From positions 32,001 to 96,000 of the forward strand of contig CAVTUQ010000004.1 of NCBI GenBank assembly GCA_963737905.1: a DNA stretch of 64,000 nt. Direction: 5' to 3'. Positions 20,771 through 58,166 of the stretch are shown piece after piece. The notes under the pieces were generated by a model. The model was not told the origin of the DNA. It ran no database searches and saw only the letters and a list, made by a program, of their open reading frames with translations. The stretch is from an uncultured delta proteobacterium (lineage in GTDB: Bacteria > Desulfobacterota > Binatia > UBA9968). The translations under genes were made by a program, and so were the position numbers. The stretch's first letter is position 1; the number at the start of each line of letters is the position of its first letter.

Positions 20771-20815
20771 GCGGACGATTTGAACGACTTGAACGTTTGG
20801 AACGATTTGAACTCT
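20771..20815. repeat. 4-5 x 9-bp TTGAACnnn array
   Basis: GCGGACGAT TTGAACGAC TTGAACGTT TGGAACGAT TTGAACTCT. Confidence 0.85.
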
Positions 20816-38510: not shown

Positions 38511-38581
38511 TAATTGCTTTAACAACGCTCTCACCTCCCTAACTCATTGGTTTTCTGAAAGAAACCCGGCTTTCGATGACC

Positions 38582-38597
38582 TGGCATGCTAGCTGCT
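38582..38597 (+). promoter_or_regulatory. Sigma-54 promoter (-24/-12)
   Basis: TGGCATGCTAGCTGCT (GG-N10-GC); IHF-like TAACTCATTGGT near 38540. Confidence 0.7.
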
Positions 38598-38643
38598 CTA
38601 TTGTGTTTCCATCAACTTCACTCAACCAAGGGAGGAAAGGAAA

Positions 38644-39555
38644 ATGCAACACAATTATTCATACCAATCGGCGCTCGAAGTCTCGGACCGAATCGGCTGG
38701 AAAGTGGACGATATCATCGGCGGCGACAAGCGGCTCGACTTCACCAAACCGTTCATGCCGGAATCGCTGGCTCAGGTGCAGCGGCTTTCCTTTCTCACCC
38801 CTGACGAACAGCTGACTCTAAACCAGATTCGCGGGCATGAGTATCTTGCCATGTTCGGTCTCGTCGAGGAGTTCATACTCCCCTACGTGGTGGACCATGC
38901 GCGGTCGCAACTCTCCGGAGACGACTACCGGGTGCGGGCCTTGCTCCAGTTCGCCGGTGAAGAGGCAAAGCATATCCATCTTTTCAAGCGCTTCCGGCAG
39001 GAGTTCGAGAACGGGTTCGGCAGCAAATGCGACTTCATCGGTCCCGCCGAGGACGTGAGCCGGTTTGTCCTTTCCCATAGTCCTTTGGGAGTCGGAATTG
39101 CGATTCTACACATCGAGTGGATGACTCTCAGGCACTACATCGAGGGCGTCAGGGATAATCAGGATCTCGACCCCCAGTTCAAGAGCCTGCTCAAGAACCA
39201 CTGGCTGGAGGAATCCCAACACACGAAGCTCGACACATTGATCCTGGAATCGGTGGTAAAGGAATCGACCCCCCAAGAGATCGACCAGGCTTTCAAGGAA
39301 TACGGCGAGATTGGTGCCTTTCTCGACCAGGGGATCCAGCAGCAAGCGGAGTTAAATGTGGAAAGTTTCGTTCAAGCGAGCGGAAGAAACCTCTCCAAGA
39401 GCGAGCGCGAAGAGATGAACAACGCCGTTATCAAGGGCATGCGCTGGACCTATCTTGGAACCGGCATGACGCATCCAAACTTTCTCGCCACCGTCGAGGA
39501 GATTAAGCCTGAAGCGAGAAAACAGATAGAGGAAATGGCGCCAGTGTTTTGTTGA
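38644..39555 (+). CDS. Ferritin-like diiron protein
   Basis: VEE ... EEAKH ... HIEW ... EESQH carboxylate/His ligands. Confidence 0.75.
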   Translation: MQHNYSYQSALEVSDRIGWKVDDIIGGDKRLDFTKPFMPESLAQVQRLSFLTPDEQLTLNQIRGHEYLAMFGLVEEFILPYVVDHARSQLSGDDYRVRALLQFAGEEAKHIHLFKRFRQEFENGFGSKCDFIGPAEDVSRFVLSHSPLGVGIAILHIEWMTLRHYIEGVRDNQDLDPQFKSLLKNHWLEESQHTKLDTLILESVVKESTPQEIDQAFKEYGEIGAFLDQGIQQQAELNVESFVQASGRNLSKSEREEMNNAVIKGMRWTYLGTGMTHPNFLATVEEIKPEARKQIEEMAPVFC

Positions 39556-39590
39556 GCAAGAATGCAAAATGAAAAATGTAGGAGGAAGCT

Positions 39591-39968
39591 ATGTCAGTCG
39601 CAGAAACAACAAAAGAAATGCCTTTGACGAAAGACATTCTAGACCACCACTTAAAGTGTTTTGGCGAGGGCGACCTCAAGGGTATTCTATCTGACTATGC
39701 CCCGGGTGCCGTCCTGTTCACGTCGGACGGACCCCTCAGGGGAGTCGACGCAATTAGGCCGTTGTTCCAGGCGATGATTGCGGAGTTTGGAAAGCCTGGC
39801 GCAGCGTTCAGCATGAAGCAGCAGTTTGTCGAGGGCGACTATGCCTATATTCTATGGGGCGCGGAGACTGCAGAAAACTTGTACGAGATAGGCACGGACA
39901 CGTTCGTCGTGCGCGACGGCAAGATTGTGGCCCAGTCATTTACCGGCAGGATTACGCCCAAAGGCTGA
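39591..39968 (+). CDS. SnoaL/NTF2-like protein
   Basis: GDLKGILSDYAPGAVL, GTDTFVVRDGKIVAQ. Confidence 0.85.
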   Translation: MSVAETTKEMPLTKDILDHHLKCFGEGDLKGILSDYAPGAVLFTSDGPLRGVDAIRPLFQAMIAEFGKPGAAFSMKQQFVEGDYAYILWGAETAENLYEIGTDTFVVRDGKIVAQSFTGRITPKG

Positions 39969-40016
39969 AAACAAGTCTTTATTCCGGTGACAAAATTTAA
40001 CGAGGAGGCGAGTATC

Positions 40017-41400
40017 ATGACAACGCAAACGTCGAAGGTGAAAGAAGAGCTCAAAGACAAGATCAAGGGGAACGTCCTGGTTCCCGAGGACAGCGGTTAC
40101 AAGGAAGCTCGGCAGATATGGAACGCCATGATCGATCGGCGGCCTGCGGTTATCGTGCAGTGCGTACAGGCTGACGATGTTCCACCAGCAATCCAGTTTG
40201 CGCGAAAAAGCGGGCTTGAACTTTCAATTCGCGGTGCCGGACACAACATCGCAGGCAATGCCCTCTGCGACAACGGCGTTATGATCGATTTTTCAAGAAT
40301 GAAAAGCGTTCGCGTAGATGCCGGGAAACGGCGCGCCTATGTCGAGCCTGGGGCGACCCTCGCGAATTTCGACGAAGCGGTACAGGCGCACGGCTTGGCG
40401 ACGCCGGTGGGGATCAATTCCACGACAGGCATCGCCGGTTTAACGTTGGGCGGCGGCTTCGGGTGGCTGACTCGCAAATACGGCATGACGATCGACAATC
40501 TCGTCTCCGTCGACATGATCACGGCCGATGGCAAGAAATTGCGGGCAAGCCAAAGCGAAAATGCGGACCTTTTCTGGGCTATTCGCGGCGGCGGGGGAAA
40601 TTTTGGCGTCGTCACCCAATTTGAATTCCAACTTTTCCCCGTGGGACCCGAAATCGTCGCCGGCTTGATCGTTTTTCCGTTCAACCAGGCAAAGCAGATA
40701 CTGACCAAGTATCGTCAATTTGTAAATTCAGCACCCGAGGAGCTCAACGTCTGGGTGGTGCTCCGCAAGGCGCCTCCGTTGCCTTTTCTTCCGGAAAACG
40801 TGCACGGCAAGGAGGTCGTTGTGTTGCCGGTCTTTTACTGCGGGGCCGCAGCGGAAGCAGAGAAACTGATCGCTCCTCTGCGCGCTTTCGGTAATGCCCA
40901 CGGCGAGCATATCGGCGCACAGCCCTATGTTGCGGTGGCAAAAGGCCTTTGACCCTTTGCTGACGCCGGGCGCGAGAAATTATTGGAAGTCGCATAACTT
41001 CACGGAGCTTGCTGACGGAGCGCTGAATTCCATTATCGAGTTCGCCGGGAAGCTGCCCTCCCCGCAGTGTGAGATTTTCATAGGGCTGATTGCCGGTGCG
41101 CCCAACCGCGTCGCCCCTAACGCGATGGCCTATGGTCATAGGGACGCGAAATTCGTGTTGAACGTGCACGGACGATGGGACGAAGCGAAGGATGACCAGA
41201 AGTGCATTGGGTGGTCACGCGAGTTTTTTAAAGCCAGCAAGCCCTACGCGTCAGCCGGCGCTTACGTAAATTTTATGACCGACGAGGAGGGCGACCGCGT
41301 CGCCGCGGCTTACGGATCCAACTATGATCGCCTGGTGGAAACCAAGAAACGCTACGATCCGGAAAATATTTTTCACTTGAATCAGAACATCAAACCTTGA
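40017..41400 (+). CDS. FAD-binding oxidoreductase (BBE-like), frameshifted near 40935
   Basis: RGAGHN covalent-FAD motif, TLGGGFGWL, DLFWAIRGGGGNFG; second frame YVNF...KKRYDPENIF. Confidence 0.88.
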
Positions 41401-41616
41401 AGCGGATGTCGTTATGGAAGGTTTCTTACTCTTCGCCCTCATACTGTTCTATGTGGCTATTTCCTTTGGTCACTCATAGAGCGAACATTACAACGACCAA
41501 AGTCGTTTTGCTGGGCTATAAAGAAAGAAGACCATGACCAGACCAGTAATCAAAACCGTGACGCCATCAGCGGAAAAATTTAGGGGGATCCACATCCCTC
41601 ATTCTTAAATGATGCC

Positions 41617-42453
41617 ATGGCAACAACGTGCCCGGTCGACTTCGATGTAGATAGATTGCGCCGGCTCGTGCGTGTGGAGTACGATCGGCTGGCGCGGGAA
41701 CCCAGGGGAAACTTTCATTTTCATCGAGGACTGGAGTATGCTTGCCGCATACTCCGCTATGACCCTGAGGAGTTGGCAACAATCCCATCCGAATGCACCG
41801 CGTCCTTTGCCGGTGTCGGCAATCCGCACCGCATCGGTCCCATCGAACCGGGTGAAACAGTCCTTGATATCGGGTGCGGCGCCGGCATGGATCTTTTGCT
41901 GGTCGCGCGCCGCGCCGGCCCTTCGGGAAAAGCGATTGGAGTGGATATGACCCCCTCCATGCTCGAGCTGGCCAAGCGCGGCGCACTAAAGGCCGGCTTA
42001 TGGGAGAACACTGAGGTTCGCCGCGGCACGGCCGAAGAGCTGCCGGTGGCGAGCGAGAGTGTCGATGTTGTTATCTCTAACGGCGTCCTCAATCTCTCAC
42101 CGGACAAAGATCGCGCCTTTCGCGAGATATACAGAGTGCTGCGTCCGGGAGGACGCTTGTATCTCGCCGATGTAGTGATTCAAAGAGAGCTTTCACTCGC
42201 AACGCGAAGCGATGTCGATCTTTGGGCAGCGTGAATTGGCGGCGCTCTGCCGGAGGTGGAGCTTTATGAAATCACCGCTGGCGTTGGTTTGACGGATGGG
42301 AAGATCGTCGAGCGCTTCGATTGTTATGAAGGTACCTCTGCTAAAGCAAAGTTATCCAAAGACCTTCTCATTCACGGCGTGAATTTTCTCGCCCGCAAAC
42401 CGTCGCGCTCAAGAGGGGCCAACGATCAGCAAACGTCGGACAGGCTAGGATAG
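41617..42453 (+). CDS. ArsM-fold SAM methyltransferase with in-frame UGA (probable selenocysteine at residue 206), 278 aa
   Basis: VLDIGCGAGMD SAM motif; DLWAA-TGA-IGGAL aligns with the ArsM LWxxCIxGAL motif; ORF 42256-42453 is in the same frame. Confidence 0.8.
42244..42262 (+). promoter_or_regulatory. Bacterial SECIS-like hairpin
   Basis: GCUCUGCC-GGA-GGUGGAGC: 8-bp stem (2 GU pairs), G-first loop 17 nt after the UGA at 42232-42234. Confidence 0.7.
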
Positions 42454-42458
42454 TCGGG

Positions 42459-43373
42459 ATGGAAAAATCATCCGAGAAAGAAATCACCACGGCGACTCTT
42501 ACAGTTTTCGCCCTTATCGCCTTTGCCGCCAACTCGGTCTTATGCCGATTGGCGCTCGGCCAGTCGGCCATCGATCCTGCAAGTTACACGGCGGTCAGGC
42601 TGATCACAGGAGCGGTCACTTTGTGGATCATCACTCGCTTCCTCCGGGCCGGATCCTTCGGGAAGTCCGGCGGCAGCTGGATTTCTGCAGCAATGCTTTT
42701 TCTATATGCGGTAACCTTTTCTTTCGCCTACCTAAGCTTGAGCGCGGGAACTGGCGCGTTGATTCTATTCGCAGCGGTGCAAATTACGATGATCGCGGTT
42801 GGCCTCTATGCGGGCGAAAGACCGGAGCTATTGGAGTGGCTGGGATTATTCATCGCCATTGCTGGCCTGATTTATTTAGTGTTTCCCGGGATCACCGCCC
42901 CGTCCATCCTCGGATCGCTACTCATGGCCACCGCCGGCATCGCCTGGGGTGTTTACTCTCTCAGAGGCCGAGGAGCCAGTGATCCTGTCAGTGTCACCAC
43001 GGACAATTTTCTACGCACAGTGCCCTTGGCCCTCGGTCTCATCTTGTTATGGCTATCGACGCTGACTATAACCCCGATGGGTTTTCTCTGGGCAGCCCTA
43101 TCCGGATCCATCACGTCGGGAGTCGGCTATGTCCTATGGTATGCGGCGCTGCCTCGCCTGACAGCGACACGGGCGGCCACGGTCCAGCTAGCACCGGCAC
43201 CGCTAGCAGCACTTGGCGGAGTTGTCGTTTTATCTGAAGCGATTAGTCTGCGTCTGGTGATATCGTCTGTGGTGATTCTGGGTGGGGTCGGCCTGGCGGC
43301 TTCCCGCCGCACGTCCGTTTCCAAGCGGCCAGAGTCTTTAACCGCTGTCGTACAGACTTCCATCAGAGACTAA
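42459..43373 (+). CDS. DMT/EamA family transporter
   Basis: AFAANSVLCRLAL, about 10 TM segments; starts 5 bp after the read-through methyltransferase stop. Confidence 0.88.
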   Translation: MEKSSEKEITTATLTVFALIAFAANSVLCRLALGQSAIDPASYTAVRLITGAVTLWIITRFLRAGSFGKSGGSWISAAMLFLYAVTFSFAYLSLSAGTGALILFAAVQITMIAVGLYAGERPELLEWLGLFIAIAGLIYLVFPGITAPSILGSLLMATAGIAWGVYSLRGRGASDPVSVTTDNFLRTVPLALGLILLWLSTLTITPMGFLWAALSGSITSGVGYVLWYAALPRLTATRAATVQLAPAPLAALGGVVVLSEAISLRLVISSVVILGGVGLAASRRTSVSKRPESLTAVVQTSIRD

Positions 43374-43533
43374 AAGCGACTTAAGATCTCACAGCAAACA
43401 GAATTTTTCGTTGCCGAAGTTCTTTAATCGACACGCGGCACATTCTGTATGTTTCACATGTTTCTCGGCGTCCACGTCCGACCGTGGATGCTCAACTCAT
43501 TTTTGAACTGGGAGTGAGATCTCAGATGATGAC

Positions 43534-43983
43534 TCATGCGAGGCGGACAACGATCACCCCCATCACTACCATGCAAACCAGTTGTGTAAAAAAGAAAATA
43601 AACCTCAGGGTTACTGCGAAGTTGGTAGGCGTGAGGGCGATATGGACGATGGTCTGGCAAACGCGGGCCGCCAGCAATAGGATCGCCAACCGATCCAGCG
43701 TAACGCTCCGGATGCCGGTCGCGACAATGGCCACCACCACCGCCGTGTAGAGTGGCAGGTTCTCCAGACAGTTGGCATGAGCGCGCATGGCCCGCTGGTA
43801 CCAATCGCTTCCATGTGGCTCGTCGGCCGGAAATTCCTTAATCGCTGCTCGTCCCGTCAAAATCCGACTCCATCGATACCAGCCGATGGTGCTCAGAAGC
43901 GTGATTGCAGTCCACGTCGCAAAACCCAACAAGACCCAGATCGGGATTGACACGAATCCAACCCTCTGCTTGAACTGGGCCAA
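43534..43983 (-). CDS. MAPEG family membrane protein
   Basis: RAMRAHANCLENLPLY, ARVCQTIVH; start uncertain. Confidence 0.8.
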   Translation of the reverse strand: MAQFKQRVGFVSIPIWVLLGFATWTAITLLSTIGWYRWSRILTGRAAIKEFPADEPHGSDWYQRAMRAHANCLENLPLYTAVVVAIVATGIRSVTLDRLAILLLAARVCQTIVHIALTPTNFAVTLRFIFFFTQLVCMVVMGVIVVRLA

Positions 43984-44103
43984 AATTCTTTCGCCGCACG
44001 TGCGGTGGCCATGAGACCTGGCGCTCAGGAGTCAATGCTTCGACAATCTGGACCGGTGGGTCTATGCAGACAAAATCTACTAGGAGTTCACACCTCCGGC
44101 CAA

Positions 44104-44148
44104 TTAGACGGCTTGAACGACTGCAACGTTTGGAACGGCTGGAACTGT
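44104..44148. repeat. 5 x 9-bp TTGAACnnn array
   Basis: TTAGACGGC TTGAACGAC TGCAACGTT TGGAACGGC TGGAACTGT. Confidence 0.75.
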
Positions 44149-44160
44149 CCCGAGTCGGCC

Positions 44161-45909
44161 TCACACCATCTGCATGTACACATCGACCAGGGCCGGTCGT
44201 TTTTCTTCTTTGATGACCTTGATCGCCCGTTCCACCGCCGGGCGAATCTTCTCCGGTTCGGTGATCGGCCCCTCGCCGTGAACGCTAAAGGTGCGGGCCA
44301 AGTTGGCAAAGTCCACCGGGGGCTTGGCCATTTCCATACCCACGAGTTTGTTCTCCACCGGCCGGCCGCGGTGGATCGCGACCTTTTCCTGATGCTCCAC
44401 GTCGTTGTAATAAACCCGATTGTTGGTCATTACCGTCAACAAAGGCACTCCGGTGTTGGCCGCAGTCCACAGGGCGCTCGGTGTGTACAGCATCTCGCCG
44501 TCGCGCTGCAAATTGACGCAGATCTTGCCCGTGCCCCGATAGGGTAGCGACGCGCCGACGGACGCGGCGGGACCGTAGCCTAATCCGCCACCGCCATAGC
44601 CGCCGAGAAAAAGGCCGGGTTTATCCCAAGTCCAGAGACGGCTCGGCCAGCCGCGAAAAGCCCCGGCGACCAGCAGCCAGTCTTCCTTCTTGAGCGCTTC
44701 CCAAATTTCGTAGGCCAAGCGCGGCGGCGCGATGGGCCGCTCGTCCCAACGCTTTTTGAGATCCGCTTGCCAGCGCGCGTGAACTTCCTCGTGCTGCCCC
44801 GTCATCGCCTTGCGCCGGTCATCGACGACGCTGTTGGAAAATTTGCCCTGCTTTTTGATTTCTTCAGCCAAAGCCGGGAGAAAAACTCTCGTGTTCGCGA
44901 CGATGGGCAGATCCACCGGCGCCAGTTGTTGAAAATCGCTGGTCCAACTCCGCACCGAGAGATCGTTGAGCGTCACGTTGATCACCTTGCAGCCGGGCTT
45001 GGTCGCAGGGGCGGTCGCGTGGGTCGCGGGGTCCTGCTTGACCAGAGCGCCGAATAGATCGGTCATGTCTAGCCCCATGATGACGTCGGCGTTGGCGATC
45101 AGCTCGCGGTTCTTGCCGGTAAGATTCAACGAATGCGTGTTGGGAAAATTCATGCGCGCGCCGAAATCGATGACCGGGATCGACAACAGATCGGCGAGCG
45201 CCACCAGGCTCATCACCGCGTCGTTATTCCGGCCCACGTAATCAGCGAGGATCACCGGATTCTGCGCCGTCGACAATAGTCGCGCTGCTTCTTTGATCGC
45301 ATCGTAGTCCGCTTGCAGCGGCGCCGGGGGACGGAAGCGGCTCGGATCGGGCAGCGGGATCTCTTTTTCGATCGCGGCCTCCTGATCGGTGACATCGAAG
45401 CAGAGATAGACCGGCCCGCCCGGGTCGCTCATGGCGATGCGATAGCCTCGCATGATCGAGGACGGAAACGCTTCGACGCCCACGGGTTGGTCGTCCCACT
45501 TGACGAAGTCGCGCACCAGATTACCCTGCACCTGCGCCGTATGGATCCAGTCGATCCACGGGCGGCGTTTACTCGAATTCATCGGCCCTGTGCCGCCCAT
45601 GACCATCACCGGCGTGTGGTCGCACCAGGCGTTGTAGATCGCCATGGAAGCGTGCTGCAGGCCGACCACGTTGTGGACGATGGCGGGCATGATCTTACCC
45701 GTCGCTTTGGCGTAACCATGCGCCACCGCGACGGCGATCTCTTCGTGACAGCAGAGAATCATCTCCGGATTGGGTTGTCGGCCGCTCTCATAATTCACTA
45801 GAGAATCGTGAATTCCGCGAAAGCTCGACCCCGGGTTGAGTGCGACGTATTCAATGCCAAGGATTTTCAACAGATCAACGACGAGATCCGATCCATAACG
45901 CGCTGCCAT
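44161..45909 (-). CDS. Thiamine pyrophosphate-binding enzyme (benzoylformate decarboxylase/ALS superfamily)
   Basis: NPGSSFRGIHDS, CHEEIAV, RDGEMLY...NN variant TPP motif. Confidence 0.85.
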   Translation of the reverse strand: MAARYGSDLVVDLLKILGIEYVALNPGSSFRGIHDSLVNYESGRQPNPEMILCCHEEIAVAVAHGYAKATGKIMPAIVHNVVGLQHASMAIYNAWCDHTPVMVMGGTGPMNSSKRRPWIDWIHTAQVQGNLVRDFVKWDDQPVGVEAFPSSIMRGYRIAMSDPGGPVYLCFDVTDQEAAIEKEIPLPDPSRFRPPAPLQADYDAIKEAARLLSTAQNPVILADYVGRNNDAVMSLVALADLLSIPVIDFGARMNFPNTHSLNLTGKNRELIANADVIMGLDMTDLFGALVKQDPATHATAPATKPGCKVINVTLNDLSVRSWTSDFQQLAPVDLPIVANTRVFLPALAEEIKKQGKFSNSVVDDRRKAMTGQHEEVHARWQADLKKRWDERPIAPPRLAYEIWEALKKEDWLLVAGAFRGWPSRLWTWDKPGLFLGGYGGGGLGYGPAASVGASLPYRGTGKICVNLQRDGEMLYTPSALWTAANTGVPLLTVMTNNRVYYNDVEHQEKVAIHRGRPVENKLVGMEMAKPPVDFANLARTFSVHGEGPITEPEKIRPAVERAIKVIKEEKRPALVDVYMQMV

Positions 45910-45989
45910 AAATACCTCCTCGACGATTATTGACTTGAACAGCGACCGAGGACCGAGTCCCCTTCGCTAATGGGCAATGCGCCTCTACA

Positions 45990-46059
45990 GTTCAAAGTTC
46001 AAGGTTCAAAGGGGGAGGGGGGATAAATACCTTGAACCTGGAACGTTGAACTTTTGAAC
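45990..46059. repeat. 7-bp periodic GTTCAA/TTGAAC repeat hairpin
   Basis: GTTCAAA GTTCAAG GTTCAAA [G-rich loop] CTTGAAC CTGGAAC GTTGAAC TTTTGAAC. Confidence 0.85.
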
Positions 46060-46072
46060 GGCCCTTTGGGCC

Positions 46073-47161
46073 CTAGTGAACGGTGGCCGACTGAGACGCC
46101 GCCTGTAACGGCTGTGGAATTTCCATGTCGTAGAGCTTTGCCACGTTGGTGCAAACAAGTTTCCTGCGCACGTCTGCCGGCAAGTGCCCCAGGTCGCGAT
46201 CGATATATTTTTTCGACTCCGGCCATGTGGAATTCCCGTGGGGATAATCGTTGGACCACATACAGTTGTCCTGACCCCACCATTCGAAACTATGGCCCGC
46301 CGCGGTGTCGCGGAAGAACGTCCCATAGACCTGTCGGTTGAAATATTCGCTGGGGTTTTTCGTGATCGGCGGAGGATTCACGCCTTTGAACCTGTTGTAA
46401 TAATAATCCCACTGCTGGAGCATGAACGGCATCCATCCGATCTCATTCTCGACGCTGACGAACCTGAGCTTGGGATATCGATCCAAGACTCCGTAGAAAA
46501 TCAGTTCAAAAAACGCATCGATGATTTCCTTGAGCTTCAGATTCACGCTGCCCCGATAGGCCTCGACGCCTGTTCGCTTGTTACCGAACACGGTTTCCTT
46601 GTGGTAGCCATGCCCGGTGAGGATATGCAGATTCACCGGCATGTTGAGATCCTGGGAAGCCGCCCAGAACTTATTGTAATGCTCCGAATGAAACGGTAGG
46701 TCCGGATGTGGCGCCTGCCAGATGATCGATCCCTTGAGACCGGCCTTCGCGCAACGCTCCAGCTCCTTTACCGCCGCGTCGATGTCATAAACCGAGATCG
46801 CGCCGATACCAATCAAACGATTGGGAGCAACCTTACAATACTCAAACAACCAATCGTTGTACGCTCGGAAACAGGCCTCTTGAAGCTTCGCGTCGTCCAT
46901 GGCGAAGTGCGGCAGCAGGTTGGTCGGGTAAAGCACCTCGGCGCTGAGCCCGTCGGTTTCCATCTCCTTGATTCGGCAATTTGGATCCGACCCACCTGGA
47001 TGCGTCTGAAAGCTTTCTCCCACTTTGAGCTGGGGAAAAACCGGAGCTTGTTCTCGGAACGACGGCGCAACTCGCTCCTTCACGGTGTTGGGTGGTTCCA
47101 TCACGTGGGAGTCCGAAGAAATCAGCACCTCACAACCTGCATTATTTCCATTGCCAGCCAT
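46073..47161 (-). CDS. Amidohydrolase family 2 protein
   Basis: ISSDSHVMEP, AYNDWL, VNLHI, WSNDYPH. Confidence 0.9.
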   Translation of the reverse strand: MAGNGNNAGCEVLISSDSHVMEPPNTVKERVAPSFREQAPVFPQLKVGESFQTHPGGSDPNCRIKEMETDGLSAEVLYPTNLLPHFAMDDAKLQEACFRAYNDWLFEYCKVAPNRLIGIGAISVYDIDAAVKELERCAKAGLKGSIIWQAPHPDLPFHSEHYNKFWAASQDLNMPVNLHILTGHGYHKETVFGNKRTGVEAYRGSVNLKLKEIIDAFFELIFYGVLDRYPKLRFVSVENEIGWMPFMLQQWDYYYNRFKGVNPPPITKNPSEYFNRQVYGTFFRDTAAGHSFEWWGQDNCMWSNDYPHGNSTWPESKKYIDRDLGHLPADVRRKLVCTNVAKLYDMEIPQPLQAASQSATVH

Positions 47162-47207
47162 AAAATCTTCCTCCTTTAGCCATATGTATATGGTTACCTA
47201 TTCATTA

Positions 47208-47278
47208 ACCGCAAAAAACTCAAAGTTCGCAAAGTTTTCGAAAAAACTTCTCTTTGTGTTTTATGCGTTCTTTGCGGT
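47208..47278. repeat. 9-bp periodic repeat hairpin
   Basis: AC CGCAAAAAA CTCAAAGTT CGCAAAG ... CTTTGTGTT TTATGCGTT CTTTGCG GT. Confidence 0.7.
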
Positions 47279-47360
47279 CAAGTTTCTCCTCAATCCTAGC
47301 GACTATTGCAGGTCTACCACCACAGACCTCAACGGGTCAACCGGGCGCGAGCACGCTCAC

Positions 47361-47427
47361 AGTTTCGAGTCTCGCGTTTCGAGTTTCGTGTTTTAAACCC
47401 GAGACTAGAAACCCGAAACACGGAACT
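47361..47427. repeat. 7-bp periodic repeat hairpin
   Basis: AGTTTCG AGTCTCG CGTTTCG AGTTTCG ... AAACCCG AGACTAG AAACCCG AAACACG. Confidence 0.8.
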
Positions 47428-47453
47428 GAAAAGGCCGAGCCAGGCCTTTTCAG
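47426..47453 (-). terminator. Hairpin overlapping the SBP stop codon
   Basis: CTGAAAAGGCC-GAGCCA-GGCCTTTTCAG perfect 11-bp stem. Confidence 0.55.
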
Positions 47454-48444
47454 AAGAGCCCTTCTTTTTCCAACTTCCGCGCGATGCGCTCGTCGATGAC
47501 ATCTTCGGCTTTGAGCTTGCGAATCTGCTCGTTGCTTCTGCCGAGAATACGGATCACGTTGCGCAGGCCATCGACGTTGGCATAAATCCGCCGGTCGTAA
47601 AGGACCTTCATCATGTCATAGCCCGCCTCCGCGTCTTCTACCTTTGACAAGCGCAAGGTGCGCATCAAGCTCCGGATAACCGTAGGTTTGTTTTCAGGAG
47701 TATTGATGAATTTAATGGTCTCGATCATCGCTCTAAGGTAGCGCTCTACGGTGTCGGGCGAGCGGTCGACAAAGCTCCGCCGCGCCATGATGCCCAGACC
47801 CTGAAACGGGATGCCGAGCGTGAGAAGATCGGCCAGAACGCGGAAACCCTGCCGCTCTAGTTGAGCCCCAAACGCATAACCGAGATACGCCCCATCGATA
47901 ATGCCGCCGGTTGCAAGCGCTTGAGCCATAACCCCCTGATCGCCGATGATCCGAAACTGAATGTTGTCACGCTCCGGATTGATCCCCCAGTGATCAAAAG
48001 CCAGCATGCTGAACATCCACACGCCCCCGCCGATACTTTGGACGCCGATCCTTTTGCCCTTGAGATCCGCCGGCGTCTTGATATTGGGAGCGACCACGAA
48101 CGTGCCATCGAGCTTGTTAATCAAACCTGCGACGAAGACCAAGTCGAGTCCGCCGGCCATCGCGCCGATGGATGCACCCGTAGCCGAACCGCCGTGAAAT
48201 TGCGTCTCTCCGGCAGCGAGCGCCGACAAGCCGACCGCGCCGCTCCGCACGTTGACGACTTGAGCATCCAGACCATACTTTTGAAAAATCCCCGCATCTT
48301 TAGCCACAAAAAGCACGCCACTGCGCTCGTTCAACCCGCCATAAGTGACGACGATCTTTGTCGGCGCCGAAGCGGCAAAACGGCAGGAGAAAAGCCCAGT
48401 GTCAAAACTAGAACGATCAAACAACATCGCATCCGATACTCCAT
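47450..48444 (-). CDS. ABC solute-binding protein (NMT1/SsuA-like); homopolymer frameshift in signal peptide near 48378
   Basis: GAGGAG RBS + ATG 48444 gives MEYRMRCCLIVLVLTLGFSPAV; body IFQKYGLD, DLKGKRIG. Confidence 0.8.
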
Positions 48445-48602
48445 CACTTTATTATCTCCTCTTTCCCATCGACGACTTCTTGTACTCCGTGCACATCTCG
48501 GATTGCAAGCGCATCGGTTTATGACTTCTGTTCGCTTCAGGTCGCCGGAGCCCTCTATGAAATCCGGTCGAGCCGGGGTAAACCCGGCACCCGGAGCAAG
48601 TC

Positions 48603-48636
48603 TTGACGCGCGCTTTCAATTGACCATAATGGTCAA
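48603..48636 (+). promoter_or_regulatory. Sigma-70 promoter with overlapping palindromic operator of the TA operon
   Basis: TTGACG-16-CATAAT; palindrome TTGACCAT-A-ATGGTCAA (48620-48636). Confidence 0.7.
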
Positions 48637-48662
48637 GTAGGACAAACCAGAAAGGAATATCT

Positions 48663-48953
48663 ATGAAGACTACAACCGTCTCAAAACTCAAGGCTTCTCT
48701 CAGTGAGTATCTACGATCGGTCAAGGCAGGCGAAGAAGTCCTAGTCACTGAACGCGGGCGCCCTATTGCCAAGCTCACTCCGGTCGCAAGTTCCGACATT
48801 CTGCCTGATCACTTGGTCGAAATGGAAAAACAGGGTTTCATCAAAATCGGCTCAGGAAAGTTGCCGAAGGGTTTTTGGGATCTTCCGCGGCCCAAAGATC
48901 CTAAGGGGTTGGTTCTCAAGACTGCTTTACGGGAACGGGAGGAGGGCTGGTGA
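48663..48953 (+). CDS. Phd/YefM-family antitoxin
   Basis: VSKLKASLSEYLRSVKAGEEVLVTERGRPIAKL. Confidence 0.9.
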   Translation: MKTTTVSKLKASLSEYLRSVKAGEEVLVTERGRPIAKLTPVASSDILPDHLVEMEKQGFIKIGSGKLPKGFWDLPRPKDPKGLVLKTALREREEGW

Positions 48954-49382
48954 AATTCTGGGACACATCCGCGGTTGTCCCTCTGTGCGTAATCGAGCCC
49001 ATTACCGGAACCGTTAAATCAATTCTCACTGGAGACCCTTCGCTCGTCGTTTGGTGGGCAACGAGGACTGAATGTGTCTCAGCCCTCAACCGGCAAACCC
49101 GAGAAGGCAGCTTGCGTATCGAGGACGAACACCAGGCACATCACGTACTAAGGCAACTTGCGGACGCCTGGACCGAGGTTCAACCGAGCGAAATTAATCG
49201 TGGGACCGCAGAGCGGCTACTTGCGTGCATGCTCTCAGAGCTGCAGATGCTTTTCAGTTAGCGCCGCTTTGCATTGGTGTCAAAGACAGCCGGTGAACAG
49301 AGAGCTGGTCTCCTTCGACACCCGGTTGCGAAACGCGGCATACAAAGAAGGATTCACGCTCCGTCCCGCCCAGATTCACTGA
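48950..49382 (+). CDS. PIN-domain (VapC-like) toxin, two apparent indels near 49225 and 49262
   Basis: KFWDTSAVV; TECVSAL; intermediate frame VHALRAADAFQL; last frame AALHW...SFDTRLRNAA; GTGA overlap with antitoxin. Confidence 0.82.
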
Positions 49383-49448
49383 GCAGTATACGTGAAGGCA
49401 CCGCGCGGAAAATCTTCGTCCGGGTTTCTGGATGCTCGATGTAACCGA

Positions 49449-52400
49449 TTATGTAAGTTCCTCCAGTAATGCTTTTGCCTCTTTCAAGTCGGCCGTGTCA
49501 AACCCTTCAGTAAACCAGCCGTAAATATCACCTAGCAATTTTCGCGCTTTTCCTGTCTTACCTTGCTTCTGCCACAGCCGACTCATGCTCATCGCTGCCC
49601 GTAACTCCAACGACTTCGCTTGCTGTCGGCGTGAAATCTCGATAGCCTCCGAAAAACTCTCCTCTGCAGAACGGTGAACGAACTCCGCTTTCTGCATTCC
49701 AGGCTCTGCATTCAAAAGAAGCTCGCCTTTCAGCCGATGTAGCTCTGCCTCGTAATACCACCCTCCGTTTTTGTGCGACCAAGCTACTTCGGACAGCACA
49801 GTCAATCCCTCCTCTGCCTTCTTCACTTTCCCATAAATCTTCGCTAGGAGAACCAGATAATGCGACCGGGCCACTTCTGCGCCTGTGGTCTTATAGGCGA
49901 GCAGACCCTGGCACATTTGTGCAACGCCTTTCTCTGCTGTTTGTCCTTCATCGGCCAGTGCCCAACCGCGTAGGATGGTTCCCTGCGTAAACCAGTAAGG
50001 GAACCCATACTTGCTTGCGAGCGCCAGGAGTGCCTCCGCTCGCTCTTGGACTGCTTCACGCTCTCGACGGAATTCATGGAGCCAGGCAGCATAGCCCAGG
50101 GCCTCAGCTAAGGTTAGGGGATGAGACAATTCCTCGGCGAGAGCTAGCGCGTCTTGACTTCTCTTCAGGGCCCGGTCCGGATAGCCAAGCAACCACAGCG
50201 CCAAGGCTCCAAAGTCCCTGCAGCACACCCCGGGGTCGTGCCCACCATAGAGAAAGGCCAGGACGCGGTGCTGTGGGGAATCATACAGATCAATCCCATG
50301 TTCCGAGTGTGCTCTGGCTAGAGTCAACTCTCCAATAAAGAACGAGTTGGCCCACATCGCGTGATGGGCTTCGAGGAGAAGACCGGCGTCACGCAGGTGC
50401 TGAGCCAGACTAAAGAGTTGCGTGGCTAGATCTCTCGCTGTTTGCAACTCTCCCCGCTGTAGATGAAGTAGCCATAGTCCCCACAATACGGGGAAAAGCT
50501 GCGAGGTCTCGCCTACCTGTTGGCACAATTCCCGTGCCCGCAGGTACACGGGTTCGATTTCTGGCGCGCCGAAACCTTTGGTTGACTGGAGCGCCGGGCC
50601 AAGGGCGAGCAGCAGAGCGAGCTCTTGCTTTTCGCGTTCGTCACTTAACGGCAACGTCTCGACGACTTCCAACGCTCTCGTGAAATAGGCCACCGCCTCT
50701 AAGTTCGCCGAACGCGATAACGCCTTGGTCCCGGCTTCGCGGAGATACATAACCGCTTTGTCCCACACCTCTCCCCTGACGGCATGGTCAGCCAAGCGCT
50801 CCACTTGTTCGCCGAGTCTGTCCCGGTAAAGCTGCTCCGTTATTTCGACGATTCGCGTATGAAGCGCGCGCCGGCGATCTTGCAACAGCGTTCCGTAAGC
50901 AACCTCGTGTGTAAGGGCGTGCTTAAAGGTGTATTCGATATCCGGAAAGAGACTCGTCTCGTAAAGAAACTCCGCGGCCTGAAGCCGAATCAGTCCACGT
51001 CTGACTTCTTCTTCGGACTGATCCGCGATGGCTTGAAGCAGCGCAAATGGAACGTCCTTGCCTATAACGGCCGCCGATTGAAGAAGACGTTTCTCATCTA
51101 GCGCAAGTCTATCAATCCGAGCGGCTAACACTGCCTGTACGGTTGCCGGTACCTGCGTGCTCTCAATCGGTCTGGCAAGACGATAATTTCCCCGCTCGCC
51201 CGCTAGCAGTTTGGTCTCCACTAATGTGCGAACGCTCTCCTCGATGAAAAAAGGGTTCCCTTCCGTTCGCTCGATCAATAGCTTTTTCAATGGCGCGAGG
51301 CTCGAATCACTTCCCAAAAGTGCCTGGAGCAGTTCCTCCGCGCTTTCAGGCGGCAGAGGATCAATCCGGAGTTGGCTGTAATAGGTCTTGCTCCCCCAGC
51401 CGTGCTGGTACTCCGGCCGATAGTTGACCAACAGCAGAAGTCGCGCAGTCGGAAGACTCTCAATCAAGCTATCCAGGAAAGACTGGGTCTCCGAATCGAT
51501 CCAGTGAAGATCTTCGATGACCAAGAGCAAAGGTTGGATTTGGCTCTCTCGTAGCAGCAAACGCTTGATTGCCTCTAGGGTGCGCTGGCGGCGCTGTGGA
51601 GGATCCGAGCTCTGCCACACTTGGTCCTCGAGCGTCAAGTCTAAGAGCGCCAGGAACGCAGGCAGTGTGGGCTCTAGAGACTTATCCAGTGTCAGGAGCT
51701 TCCCTGTAACTTTCTCGCGAATCTTCCGCACATCGTCTCGGTCTTCAATGGTGAAGTATGCCTTGAGCAGGTCGATCACTGGAAGATACGCAGTCGCTTT
51801 GCCGTAAGAGACCGAGCCGCTTTCAAGGATAAGCCAGTCCACGGTACGGCGAGAATGAGCGAACTCCCAGAACAGACGGGACTTGCCTACCCCCGGCTCA
51901 CCGACAAGGGCTACCACCTGGCCGTGGCCGCTGCCTGCCTTATCGAGAGCGCGGCGGAGAGTCTCAAGCTCAGTATCGCGTCCGACGAAGCGCGTGAAAC
52001 CGCGCGCGGCTGCTGCTTGCAGCCGAGAACGTGTGGCTCCAACTCCAGTAACCTCATAAACTTCCACCGGCTCAGTTAGTCCCTTGACGTTGACCGGGCC
52101 AAGCGACTTCACCTGCACATAGCCTTCGGCTAGTTGTAGTGTGTCCGCGGTCATCATGATCGACCCCGGCATCGCCATCTGTTCCATCCGTGCGGCCAAA
52201 TGGGTGGTCTGCCCAACGGCCGTGTAATCCATCTTCAGGTCGCTGCCGATCGATCTGACTACGACTTCTCCAGAATTCACGCCAACTCGAATCTGAATCG
52301 GAATGCCCTCAGTTCTCTGAATGCTCTCTGCATACTTCTTCACCGACTCCTGCATCCTGAGCGCGGAGTAACAGGCTCGCACTGCATGATCTTCATTCGC

Positions 52401-52844
52401 GAGCGGCGCACCAAAAAGCGCCATGATGCCGTCGCCCATGACTTGATTGACGGTTCCCTCATATCGGTGCACCGCTTCCATCATGTGCTCGAGCACCGGG
52501 TCAAGAATCTTCCGCGCTTCCTCCGGGTCACGGTCCGCAAGTAACTCCATCGATCCTTTTATATCCGCGAACAGCACCGTCACCTGCTTGCGTTCACCTT
52601 CGAGGGCGCTCTTGGAAGTCAAAATCTTCTCGGCGAGGTGTTTGGGGGTATAAGTTTCGGGAGAAATGAAGCGCGTGGCTATAGCCGGTTGAGCACTCAC
52701 CGATTGCCCACACTCGAGACAGAACTTCGCCCCCGCAGGAAGCTCTGTGCCGCACGCGGCGCATTTTAGGGCCAGCACAGTTCCGCACTCGAGGCAAAAT
52801 TTTGCCTGCGGCGGATTCTCCTGCTGGCAGCGCAGACATTTCAT
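49449..52844 (-). CDS. Double zinc ribbon - class III nucleotide cyclase - AAA ATPase - TPR protein
   Basis: 4 CxxC pairs; VLFADIKGS and GDGIMALFG cyclase; GEPGVGKS Walker A; EDLHWID Walker B; TPR tail ending GFDTADL. Confidence 0.92.
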   Translation of the reverse strand: MKCLRCQQENPPQAKFCLECGTVLALKCAACGTELPAGAKFCLECGQSVSAQPAIATRFISPETYTPKHLAEKILTSKSALEGERKQVTVLFADIKGSMELLADRDPEEARKILDPVLEHMMEAVHRYEGTVNQVMGDGIMALFGAPLANEDHAVRACYSALRMQESVKKYAESIQRTEGIPIQIRVGVNSGEVVVRSIGSDLKMDYTAVGQTTHLAARMEQMAMPGSIMMTADTLQLAEGYVQVKSLGPVNVKGLTEPVEVYEVTGVGATRSRLQAAAARGFTRFVGRDTELETLRRALDKAGSGHGQVVALVGEPGVGKSRLFWEFAHSRRTVDWLILESGSVSYGKATAYLPVIDLLKAYFTIEDRDDVRKIREKVTGKLLTLDKSLEPTLPAFLALLDLTLEDQVWQSSDPPQRRQRTLEAIKRLLLRESQIQPLLLVIEDLHWIDSETQSFLDSLIESLPTARLLLLVNYRPEYQHGWGSKTYYSQLRIDPLPPESAEELLQALLGSDSSLAPLKKLLIERTEGNPFFIEESVRTLVETKLLAGERGNYRLARPIESTQVPATVQAVLAARIDRLALDEKRLLQSAAVIGKDVPFALLQAIADQSEEEVRRGLIRLQAAEFLYETSLFPDIEYTFKHALTHEVAYGTLLQDRRRALHTRIVEITEQLYRDRLGEQVERLADHAVRGEVWDKAVMYLREAGTKALSRSANLEAVAYFTRALEVVETLPLSDEREKQELALLLALGPALQSTKGFGAPEIEPVYLRARELCQQVGETSQLFPVLWGLWLLHLQRGELQTARDLATQLFSLAQHLRDAGLLLEAHHAMWANSFFIGELTLARAHSEHGIDLYDSPQHRVLAFLYGGHDPGVCCRDFGALALWLLGYPDRALKRSQDALALAEELSHPLTLAEALGYAAWLHEFRREREAVQERAEALLALASKYGFPYWFTQGTILRGWALADEGQTAEKGVAQMCQGLLAYKTTGAEVARSHYLVLLAKIYGKVKKAEEGLTVLSEVAWSHKNGGWYYEAELHRLKGELLLNAEPGMQKAEFVHRSAEESFSEAIEISRRQQAKSLELRAAMSMSRLWQKQGKTGKARKLLGDIYGWFTEGFDTADLKEAKALLEELT

Positions 52845-52906
52845 AATCCGGCCTTCTCGCCTAAATTTCTGGATCTCCAGACTTCAGTACGAACGTTTCG
52901 GATTGC

Positions 52907-52992
52907 TCACCACGGAGTCGCCGAGGACGCGGAGAAAAATTTTTTGATCGAGGAATACTTCTATCTTTGCGAACTCTATGTCTCCGCGGTGA
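52907..52992. repeat. 9-bp periodic repeat hairpin
   Basis: TCACCACGGAGTCGCCGAGGACGCGGAG ... CTTTGCGAACTCTATGTCTCCGCGGTGA. Confidence 0.7.
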
Positions 52993-53029
52993 ATACTCTT
53001 TCACAGTAAACTCGAAAGCGCCATATTTC

Positions 53030-54389
53030 TCAGGCCGGTCGGATATTCTGATTCAGGTGGAACAGATTAGCCGGGTCATACTTTGCTTTCAGCATTCGCA
53101 GGCGCTGGTAGTTCGGCCCGTAAGCTGCCGCGACGGCGTCTTCTCCATCATCGTCCCCCAGATAGTTTACGTAGCGCCCTGGCGTGAAGCTGGGCCGCAT
53201 GAAGTCATATGATTGCCGCGCCCACGCAATATTCGGAGCGTTGTCGGCCGGTTCGAGCCATTCGGAGACGACCAGAAAGTTATAGCCCTCGTGCCGGTGT
53301 GGGAACGCCGTCTCGCTCACGCCGACACGCGTCGCTGCGCCGTGGATGTGCTCCAGCACCAGGCCGCTCATCGGCGAGGGACATGCCGCGAACTGAGAAA
53401 CTAGCGTGTCGATGGCCCCATCGCTGAGTTCACCTATGAAATTGGATTTCCAGTAGTTAAGGGCGCCCCGAGGGAATCCGGCGTCCAGCATCCTATTCGT
53501 CTCCTCGTAGCTTGTTGGACCGATGGAATCCAGAATCGGCGTGCCGAACTTCTTAATCGGCTCAAGGGCAGCCTCCGCTTCGGCTAGAGGACCGCAGTGG
53601 CATAAAATGATCACGGCGATCTGAGCGCCGTCGGGCGCGTGCAGCAGCGCGCCGAAGATCGTGAGGTCGTCGGTAAGTCCCGCCAACGTGATTTCCCGGA
53701 AAAATTTCAGCACATCGCGAGCACGATCGAAAGGGTGAGCGATGAGGCCGCTTGTGACCGTCCCAACCGGATGTAAGCGGTACTCCAACCATGAGACAGC
53801 GCCGAAGTTACCGCCGCCGCCTTGAAGTCCCCAGAAGAGATCGGCGTTTTCCTCCTTGCTTGCCCGCACGATGTCACCCGAAGCAGTAACGACCTCCGCC
53901 GAAAGAATTGTCCATCGCCAGCCCATACTTGGCCATGAGCCACCCGAGGCCGCCACCGAGCGTCAAACCCGCGATGCCAGTCGTGGAGATCACGCCGCCG
54001 GTGGTCGCTAGCCCATGTGCCTGCGTTTCGCGGTTGAATTCACGCCAGGTCACTCCGCCCTGAGCGCACGCCGTGCGACGGACCGGATCAACGTGGATGC
54101 CCTTCATGAGCGACATGTCGAGCATCAGCCCATCGTCACAGACAGCCCGGCCGGCAACGTTATGACCGCCGCCGCGCACCGCCAATTCGAGTCCGTGAGT
54201 GCGCGCGAAGTTTACCGCGTCAACGATGTCAGCGTTACCGACGCAGCCGGCAATCAACGCAGGGTGCCGATCGATCATACCGTTGTGGACCCGCCGTACT
54301 TCATCGTACCCGGATTGATCGGGACGCAGGAGCACGCCGGAAAAGCGAGCGGACAGGTCAACGATACTGGCTTGATCGAGCGCAACCAT
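53030..54389 (-). CDS. FAD-binding oxidoreductase (BBE-like), frameshifted near 53910
   Basis: RGGGHN, TLGGGLGWL; second frame DLFWGLQGGGGNFG, YVNY, KAKYDPANLF. Confidence 0.88.
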
Positions 54390-54467
54390 GAAATTCCTCC
54401 CAAAGACTTCTAGATAGTTGTGCCTTATAAATGTTCAATAGAACCACGGCTACAAAGCTTATCGGGT

Positions 54468-54502
54468 TGTTTCGAATTTTGGATTTCAAGTTTCGAGTTT
54501 TT
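54468..54502. repeat. 7-bp periodic array (single arm)
   Basis: TGTTTCG AATTTTG GATTTCA AGTTTCG AGTTTT. Confidence 0.55.
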
Positions 54503-54531
54503 TGTCCCTTCCGTCTCATACGGGTAGTGCC

Positions 54532-57500: not shown

Positions 57501-57873
57501 GATGAACTGCCTCCATCATGTGTTCGAGAATCGGATCGAGAAGCTTCCGCGTTTGCTCCGGGTCGCGGTCCGCAAGTAACTCCGTTGAGCCCTTCATATC
57601 AGCAAAAAGCACTGTGACTTGCTTGCGCTCGCCTTCGAGCGCGCTCTTCGACGTAAGAATCTTTTCGGCGAGGTGCTTGGGCGTGTAAGCTTCAGGAGAG
57701 TTAAACCGTACGAGAATAGGTCCGGCGACAGGATGCGCGCACTCGGGGCAAAACTTTGCGGTCGCGGAAAGCTGAGTGCCACAGTTCACGCAGCTGCGGG
57801 CCAGCGGAGCCGCACACTCCTCGCAGAACTTTGCTCCGGATGGATTTTCATGCTGGCAGCGAGAACACTTCAT
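54532..57873 (-). CDS. Second DZR - cyclase - AAA ATPase - TPR protein, frameshifts near 55815 and 54920
   Basis: Three overlapping ORFs (55732-57873, 54717-55937, 54532-54930) form one paralog of 49449-52844. Confidence 0.85.
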
Positions 57874-58166
57874 TTAGGTTTCCCATCATCGGACTAAGAA
57901 GAGTGCGATCGACTTCAAATGTCTCATCCTCTGCCTTGCACTCAATCCTGAGTCCAAATCCCGCGAGTCCAGTAGAAAATCTCATGGCCCCTGGTCGGCA
58001 AGCTGGCGGTTTTTGCCTACCACTGTTTCGATTCATTGTCCACATCGGTTTCCTGCTCTTCCGAACTACGGGCAAGGGAGAATCGACTCGGCTGGTTTGA
58101 AGAAGAAGAACCGCCCTGGTATGAATCGTCGCGAATACCAAATGGTAGGCGCAGGAACAATCCTTT

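Follow-up and report, generated by a model that had tools for sequence, protein, structure and literature searches.

We analysed a 64,000-nt stretch of DNA (the window in the following) from an uncultured delta proteobacterium of the Binatia (assembly GCA_963737905.1, contig CAVTUQ010000004.1, positions 32,001 to 96,000 of the forward strand) and found that a gene on its + strand, at positions 41617-42456, very probably encodes a selenoprotein. It is predicted to be a single gene for a 278-aa S-adenosylmethionine (SAM)-dependent methyltransferase of the ArsM/AS3MT lineage, in which the UGA codon at 42232-42234 would specify selenocysteine (Sec) as residue 206. We put the probability of genuine decoding of the gene with Sec at about 0.9, a figure that does not refer to the substrate of the enzyme. 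A preliminary description of this DNA had proposed a 278-aa selenoprotein with Sec206, and the proposal was supported by a conserved TGA, by Cys at the same column in homologs, by a covarying hairpin, and by the presence of selA, selB, and selD in the genome.

The reading frame opens with ATG at 41617, reaches the TGA at 42232-42234 and is open afterwards up to the TAG at 42454-42456. If the TGA is read through, a protein of 278 aa followed by the TAG stop results, with the TGA as codon 206 in the context DVDLWAA-U-IGGALPE. Gene calling with translation table 11 returns a product of only 205 aa from the open reading frame (ORF) 41617-42234, and the ORF at 42256-42453 with its GTG start is the tail of the same frame, 639 nt or 213 codons downstream of 41617. 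The earlier view that these two same-frame ORFs are parted by the TGA alone was thus correct. When we compared the gene to 17 close relatives, the differences at codon positions 1, 2, and 3 numbered 143, 99, and 460 after the TGA and 137, 37, and 453 before it, and by this pattern the sequence 3' of the TGA is to be regarded as coding and under selection. TGA acts as an ordinary stop elsewhere in the window, where it ends 15 of 44 mechanical ORFs of at least 250 aa, and therefore the code is not reassigned.

The preliminary description had also advised a check of the codon itself. Contigs of three independent sequencing runs from three studies (X1, X4, and X9) spanned the TGA, and no difference at 42232-42234 was seen among the matches listed. 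The RNA run X20 contributed one contig of 167 nt that covered only 41888-42054 and was uninformative on the UGA as well as on expression.

Pfam assigned the protein to the class I SAM methyltransferases (Methyltransf_31 with 109 bits, and also Methyltransf_11 and Methyltransf_25). The best solved structures were those of CmArsM (4fr0, 4kw7, and 5eg5, E ~2e-29) and 5evj. The phmmer alignment to CmArsM 4fr0 (E 2.6e-29) extended from residue 51 to 234 of the query and from 56 to 252 of the chain and therefore spanned the Sec position, placing U206 on Cys224 within a common motif (UIGGAL here, CxGGAL in CmArsM). The full coding sequence is thus backed by its frame, the Methyltransf_31 match, the alignment across residue 206, and the codon-position bias 3' of the TGA.

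We also examined the column of residue 206 in relatives. In species-representative genomes our scan confirmed 305 relatives, and the best 80 loci, which came from many phyla, were kept. The codon aligned to residue 206 was TGA in 77 of these loci and TCA, TGG, or TGC in one locus each. In 79 loci the translated homology extended to around residue 260; in the remaining one, L123, the frame was lost about ten codons 3' of its TGA. A search of 5.8 billion proteins resulted in 7988 matches among 8000 scored candidates, and the best 120 were inspected at column 206. Sixty-one of them stop exactly at the residue aligned to 205, as expected from the earlier statement that gene callers cut the protein short at the UGA and as seen for the 205-aa fragment in the window. 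Cys was present at the column in 40. Homologs with Cys or TGA at this position and with similarity continuing past it are what the preliminary description had suggested looking for.

Another 17 of the 57 proteins that reach column 206 have G (7), S (4), R (3), L (2), or W (1) (e.g., P0002, P0003, P0005-P0007, P0009, P0010, P0013, P0017, and P0020; among the loci, L066 and L067 belong here as well). Each of these residues has a codon that is one base change away from TGA. These forms may represent sequencing errors that permit read-through by the gene caller, or real recent losses of Sec. They are over-represented by ascertainment, since a gene with an intact TGA is called as a fragment of 205 aa. 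The proteins with 78-87% identity to that of the window (loci L053-L070) stem from metagenome-assembled genomes labelled Thermodesulfobacteriota, "Deltaproteobacteria", Binatia, and Verrucomicrobiia, and this spread across labels suggests horizontal transfer of the gene cluster or mis-binning.

A predicted bacterial selenocysteine insertion sequence (SECIS) hairpin is located inside the coding sequence at 42244-42262 of the + strand. The arms GCUCUGCC (42244-42251) and GGUGGAGC (42255-42262) form 8 pairs, two of them G-U, around the loop GGA (42252-42254). The hairpin starts 9 nt 3' of the UGA, and the spacing from the UGA to the first G of the loop is 17 nt. The preliminary description had already pointed to a hairpin with a G-first loop at this distance, and we found the 8-bp stem with the GGA loop as the minimum-free-energy structure of the local RNA. 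It had also recommended a comparison with the bacterial SECIS model, which according to section 5 of a recent review (PMC13188914) has a loop of 3-9 nt, an upper stem of 4-16 bp, a G in the first two loop positions, a spacing of 16-37 nt to the UGA, and a minimum free energy of -7.5 kcal/mol or lower. The window hairpin lies within all of these limits, with a loop of 3 nt (GGA), a stem of 8 bp, GG at the first loop positions, a spacing of 17 nt, and -11.5 kcal/mol.

The stem was also found to covary. In an alignment of the window with the 77 TGA-bearing loci (78 sequences) the 8-pair helix was paired in 96.8% of 624 cells. Changes on both sides of a pair occurred in 25 cells in 3 pairs, with GC replaced by CG in 11 sequences and CG replaced by UA in 6 sequences for one pair and in 8 for another. 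The covariation score and the percentage paired were reached by none of 500 shuffles. When the 3' partner was moved by 1-3 columns, 31-53% of the cells were paired, a comparison that somewhat favours the helix, since it was taken from one aligned sequence. Several of the compensations change the protein, from PEAEL to PEGEL, LSETE, or LLEAE; for example, Ala214 was changed to Gly together with a synonymous change of Leu211, and Pro212 was changed to Ser or Leu together with Ala214 to Thr. Because such compensations cost amino-acid changes, they are difficult to account for unless the RNA is under selection. Judged by the conservation of the TGA and the covariation of the stem, the putative SECIS is far more than a chance hairpin.

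A profile search of the genome detected selA (606.9 bits), selB (409.8 bits), and selD (381.4 bits), all above the curated cut-offs. The three genes lie side by side at C29:71024-75669. The selD gene is itself a selenoprotein gene with an in-frame TGA in the context AAG-U-AAK, in agreement with the UxxK motif that is listed for SelD in Table 1 of PMC13188914.

Some results weighed against decoding of the UGA as Sec. The folding energy of the hairpin was no better than that of shuffled sequences in a context of 75 nt (z = -0.70) or 40 nt (z = -0.81), while the bare 19-mer, at -10.1 kcal/mol, stood out (z = -3.3, equalled by 1 of 200 shuffles). Since the folding energy was undecided in contexts of 40-75 nt, we relied on covariation. 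No Rfam family was found on the region, and the 4 matches obtained for 41000-43000 at permissive settings had E values of at least 5, scored far below the gathering thresholds, and included no SECIS; this null result is uninformative, not negative. Furthermore, the gene for tRNA-Sec (selC) was not found in the assembly by Rfam model RF01852, by ARAGORN, by a regular expression for the UCA anticodon loop and T-loop, and by blastn with the tRNA-Sec of relatives. The best RF01852 match, among 150 scored of 852 first-look candidates in the genome, was a tRNA-Leu (46.6 bits). ARAGORN was applied at default and relaxed thresholds, and the relaxed runs yielded only noise. No tRNA-Sec was present around selD, selB, and selA either (C29:69524-77169 scanned). 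By comparison, 15 of 20 relatives, including one of two genomes of the same genus, had a tRNA-Sec of 64-79 bits (13 of 18 without the unpublished genomes G406 and G411), and in a positive control ARAGORN found tRNA-Sec in 8 of 8 loci from relatives, one of them (L136) from G406. The assembly is a metagenome-assembled genome with 87.5% completeness and 6.7% contamination, and the absence of selC probably reflects an assembly gap. The Sec machinery whose presence had been named as a check was thus recovered as a cluster of selA, selB, and selD, but without selC.

The UGA could alternatively be read through without Sec, by a near-cognate tRNA inserting Trp, Cys, or Arg or in a reassigned code. 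The missing selC would suit such a reading, as would W, R, G, S, or L at the column in some homologs. We consider it very unlikely in view of the many long ORFs of the window that end with TGA, the presence of selA, selB, and a Sec-type selD, the 40 homologs with Cys in what is a classic Cys/Sec pair, and the conservation of a SECIS-type hairpin at the right distance. Even less probable is a genuine stop that leaves a truncated or split methyltransferase of 205 aa, whether or not a separate ORF of 65 aa is expressed from the GTG at 42256. It would match the table-11 gene calls and the lack of selC in the assembly, and the frameshift in an adjacent gene (see below) would testify to decay or errors nearby. 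However, a decaying gene would not keep TGA in 77 of 80 loci, a third-position bias after the TGA, and a covarying hairpin, and the stretch with continuing alignment to residues 225-252 of CmArsM would be missing from a product of 205 aa. The chance that TGC, TGT, or TGG was misread or misassembled as TGA is minute despite the contamination of the metagenome-assembled genome and a 1-nt indel 1.3 kb upstream, as the same TGA is found in a second contig of the assembly (C24) and in 77 other genomes, and the contigs of X1, X4, and X9 show no difference there among the matches listed.

With Sec at residue 206 as the preferred reading, we compared the protein to ArsM at the arsenic-binding positions. 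The As(III) ligands of CmArsM are Cys72, Cys174, and Cys224, the counterparts of Cys61, Cys156, and Cys206 in human AS3MT, according to the searchable text of PMC4211708. In that of PMC3877260, arsenite is bound by three cysteines, methylarsenite by two, and dimethylarsenite by one. In the window protein, the position of Cys72 (human Cys61, GCG motif) is occupied by Val67 (FAGVGNP versus FYGCGS) and that of Cys174 (human Cys156, SNC motif) by Gly156 (VISNGVLNL versus VISNCVCNL). The preliminary description had spoken of the catalytic Cys position. The UGA does fall on a conserved Cys of ArsM, but this residue is better named the As(III)-binding Cys224/Cys206, and its two partner cysteines are absent.

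We scored the three positions in 109 loci. The 89 loci with TGA have V, I, L, M, or T at the Cys72 position and G (88 loci) or S (1 locus) at the Cys174 position. Three cysteines were found in 17 loci (one of them mis-scored through an alignment offset), and 3 loci combine V/G with S, W, or C at the third position. TGA together with either partner cysteine was not observed in any of the 109 loci, and both partner cysteines were missing in all of the 120 best database proteins.

A role in arsenic methylation is weakened by the loss of two of the three As(III) ligands (V67 and G156) and also by the score against the ArsM model NF008823, which at 215.9 bits was below the cut-off of 263. None of 8 other Sec-type relatives passed this model (186-249 bits), while 4 of 4 canonical proteins with all three cysteines did (337-371 bits). 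In addition, none of arsC, acr3, and arsB was among the 12 neighbor families annotated around the loci. Because the partner cysteines are missing and the Sec-type proteins stay under the NF008823 cut-off, the assignment to arsenite is doubtful, and so is, on these sequence criteria, the label arsenite methyltransferase for the whole Sec-type clade.

The best NCBIfam matches of the protein were NF041537 (218.5 bits, cut-off 510), NF041536 (203.1, cut-off 575), and NF047649 (192.3, cut-off 460), none of which was passed. A distant relative, L032, passed the ArsM/DUF2284 double-selenoprotein model (587 versus 575), and the stand-alone clade passed no curated NCBIfam model. We calculated a tree of 104 rows by a quick IQ-TREE search with midpoint rooting, leaving out the partial loci L041, L118, L123, L127, L129, and L130. 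The 16 canonical ArsM sequences formed one clade (99% SH-aLRT). The window sequence fell within a clade of 75 rows (97%), composed of 72 TGA forms and nested single forms with TGC, TGG, and TCA. In an alignment of 32 sequences of the clade, H34, F35, H36, and G38 of an N-terminal FHFHRG motif were invariant, as were D84 and G88-G90 (part of the SAM motif), S154-N155-G156, W203, position 206, and G209.

As a selenoprotein the gene is no discovery, since selenoproteins of the ArsM type have been described in the literature since 2007 and count among the commoner bacterial families. The Sec-containing arsenite S-adenosylmethyltransferase reportedly goes back to Fomenko et al. 2007, Science 315:387. 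A Sec arsenite methyltransferase is listed under "Experimentally verified" in Table 1 of a 2026 review (PMC13188914), with the motif UxxG, one Sec, and the models NF008823/PRK11873, citing Fomenko 2007, and the same family is listed in a 2022 review (PMC9312934). The GOS survey is given with 8 Sec sequences and 245 Cys homologs of arsenite methyltransferase (PMC2398784), and Peng et al. 2016 with 41 arsenite methyltransferase selenoproteins in 39 organisms (PMC5029168). Because this family has been listed since 2007 and UIGG conforms to UxxG, the window gene would encode a selenoprotein of an established kind. The caution in the preliminary description that family novelty needed checking was therefore well placed.

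The window protein shares with the listed family one Sec in U-x-x-G (here U-I-G-G) at the Cys206/207 position of AS3MT and a SECIS directly 3' of the UGA. It differs in its score of 215.9 against the 263 of NF008823 and in Val and Gly at the positions of Cys72 and Cys174, the family being compared here by its listing alone. With canonical ArsM and AS3MT (CmArsM 4fr0/4fs8/4fsd and human AS3MT) it has in common the fold, as judged by sequence, the SAM motif, and the [C/U]xGGAL segment, but Val67, Gly156, and Sec206 stand where CmArsM has the three cysteines that bind As(III). Its first 40 residues, which include the invariant FHFHRG motif, were unaligned in 14 of 17 canonical loci, whose alignments begin at query residue 38 or later. 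Fused relatives of ArsM with several Sec residues were added by Haft and Tolstoy 2025, as the table in PMC13188914 has it, and are described here by this table and the NCBIfam names. These models, NF041537 (ArsM/AhpD), NF041536 (ArsM/DUF2284), and NF047649 (methyltransferase/UXPK-star), are the best NCBIfam matches and have the same UxxG Sec position, and relatives close to them (L028, L029, L032, and L034-L036) likewise carry Gly in place of Cys174. Unlike them, the window protein has a single TGA in 278 aa and no second domain, second TGA, or UXPK terminus. We found no statement on the loss of the partner cysteines in Sec-type homologs, or on a stand-alone clade below every curated cut-off, in the searchable literature texts, which do not comprise the primary papers of 2007 and 2025 and their supplements, so that both may be in print.

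We propose that UGA 206 would be decoded as Sec by SelB with Sec-tRNA(Sec), recruited by the hairpin with its 8-bp stem and GGA loop inside the coding sequence. The selenolate of Sec206 would lie beside the SAM site, at the place where the substrate is held in ArsM, and would hold a soft metalloid or chalcogen by one Se-X bond during methylation by SAM. Since two of the three As(III) ligands are lost, the site would be limited to a single covalent Se-X bond, and intramolecular disulfide chemistry would not be expected. An external thiol, via a selenenylsulfide, would probably do the redox work of the missing Cys72 and Cys174. The invariant H34 and H36 may help to bind the substrate.

With ArsM as the nearest homolog, we give even odds to a trivalent arsenical, i.e., As(III), MAs(III), or DMAs(III), as the substrate. 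This choice receives some support from the ArsR-rhodanese and MFS genes found next to the gene in 9 and 13 of 81 loci. Another soft species, a Se, Te, or S compound, is possible with somewhat lower probability, leaving a small remainder for other substrates. A one-bond site would suit, for example, bound selenide, with Enz-Se-Se- leading to methylselenol, or bound sulfide, with Enz-Se-S- leading to methanethiol, and likewise DMAs(III) or tellurium species. The clade defined by FHFHRG...G[VI]GNP...SNG...U[IV][AG]G is spread over Acidobacteriota, Binatota, Thermodesulfobacteriota, Myxococcota, Verrucomicrobiota, and others. As a tentative suggestion, to which we assign about one chance in three, its members are not arsenite methyltransferases but a distinct, widespread family of methyltransferases with a single selenolate in place of the As(III) cage of three cysteines.

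The gene remains of interest for this active site with one selenolate and for the annotation of its clade, which is widely truncated or doubtful. Besides the 61 proteins that are 3'-truncated at the UGA, those named by NCBI are labelled only "methyltransferase domain-containing protein". The JGI label is "arsenite methyltransferase", and arsM surveys could well count these proteins. If the enzymes have another substrate, or if they methylate arsenic with a selenolate as the one ligand, inventories of arsM in the environment would need adjusting, and so would ideas on microbial volatilisation of Se, As, or Te in soils.

The gene is followed by a gene for an EamA-family transporter (42459-43373, + strand; EamA 64 bits), which provides context and is outside the recoding device. 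Its distance had been given as 5 bp past the read-through stop. The ATG at 42459 is indeed 5 nt after the last sense codon, but only 2 nt after the TAG. The transporter is likely co-transcribed with the methyltransferase; downstream EamA homologs were seen in 7 of 81 loci, each of them from a close relative. Upstream genes on the same strand (38644-41400), identified by Pfam domains and neighbor counts, are also kept in close relatives. They encode an AurF-like protein (38644-39555, in 10 of 81 loci), a SnoaL-like protein (39591-39968, in 15), and an FAD/BBE oxidase (39987-41400, frameshifted here, in 9), and together with the EamA transporter gene they are the conserved neighbors in the sub-clade of the window.

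ArsR-family HTH-rhodanese fusions directly upstream are encoded in loci L120 and L122 (at 2255-2989) and 7 others. In L120 and L122, which belong to an Acidobacteriota-type branch, the fusion gene lies 12 nt upstream of the methyltransferase gene. MFS transporter genes were found upstream, and an OsmC-like gene in 10 loci. As flanks of 3 kb were inspected and many contigs are short, these counts are lower bounds; each neighbor family was annotated from one example. An ordinary ars operon context was considered and rejected, as arsC, acr3, and arsB were lacking among the annotated families.

The FAD_binding_4/BBE oxidase gene is split into overlapping ORFs (39987-40952 and 40894-41400) with a frameshift near 40930-40936. 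Contig C24 has one G fewer in this gene (GCGTGG versus GCGGTGG) and a single frame of 476 codons, and in relatives the gene is undivided and encodes about 460 aa. Either the assembly contains a 1-nt error here, or the frameshift is recent. Over 19.4 kb, C24:3-19445 is 94.6% identical to C4:70517-89945 (window 38517-57945). Its copy of the methyltransferase gene is 98% identical, keeps the TGA, and has four amino-acid differences elsewhere. C24 probably derives from a co-binned sister strain, given the contamination of 6.7%, rather than from a true duplication.

The regular expression used for tRNA-Sec gave 45 matches in the genome, mostly in tandem arrays with a period of 9 nt. Two such arrays of the GTTCAANNC type, with about 4 copies each, were detected in the window by TRF (20775-20812 and 44108-44145), and many other contigs contain them as well. 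The array at 44108-44145 lies between the called ORFs of MAPEG and TPP-enzyme genes.

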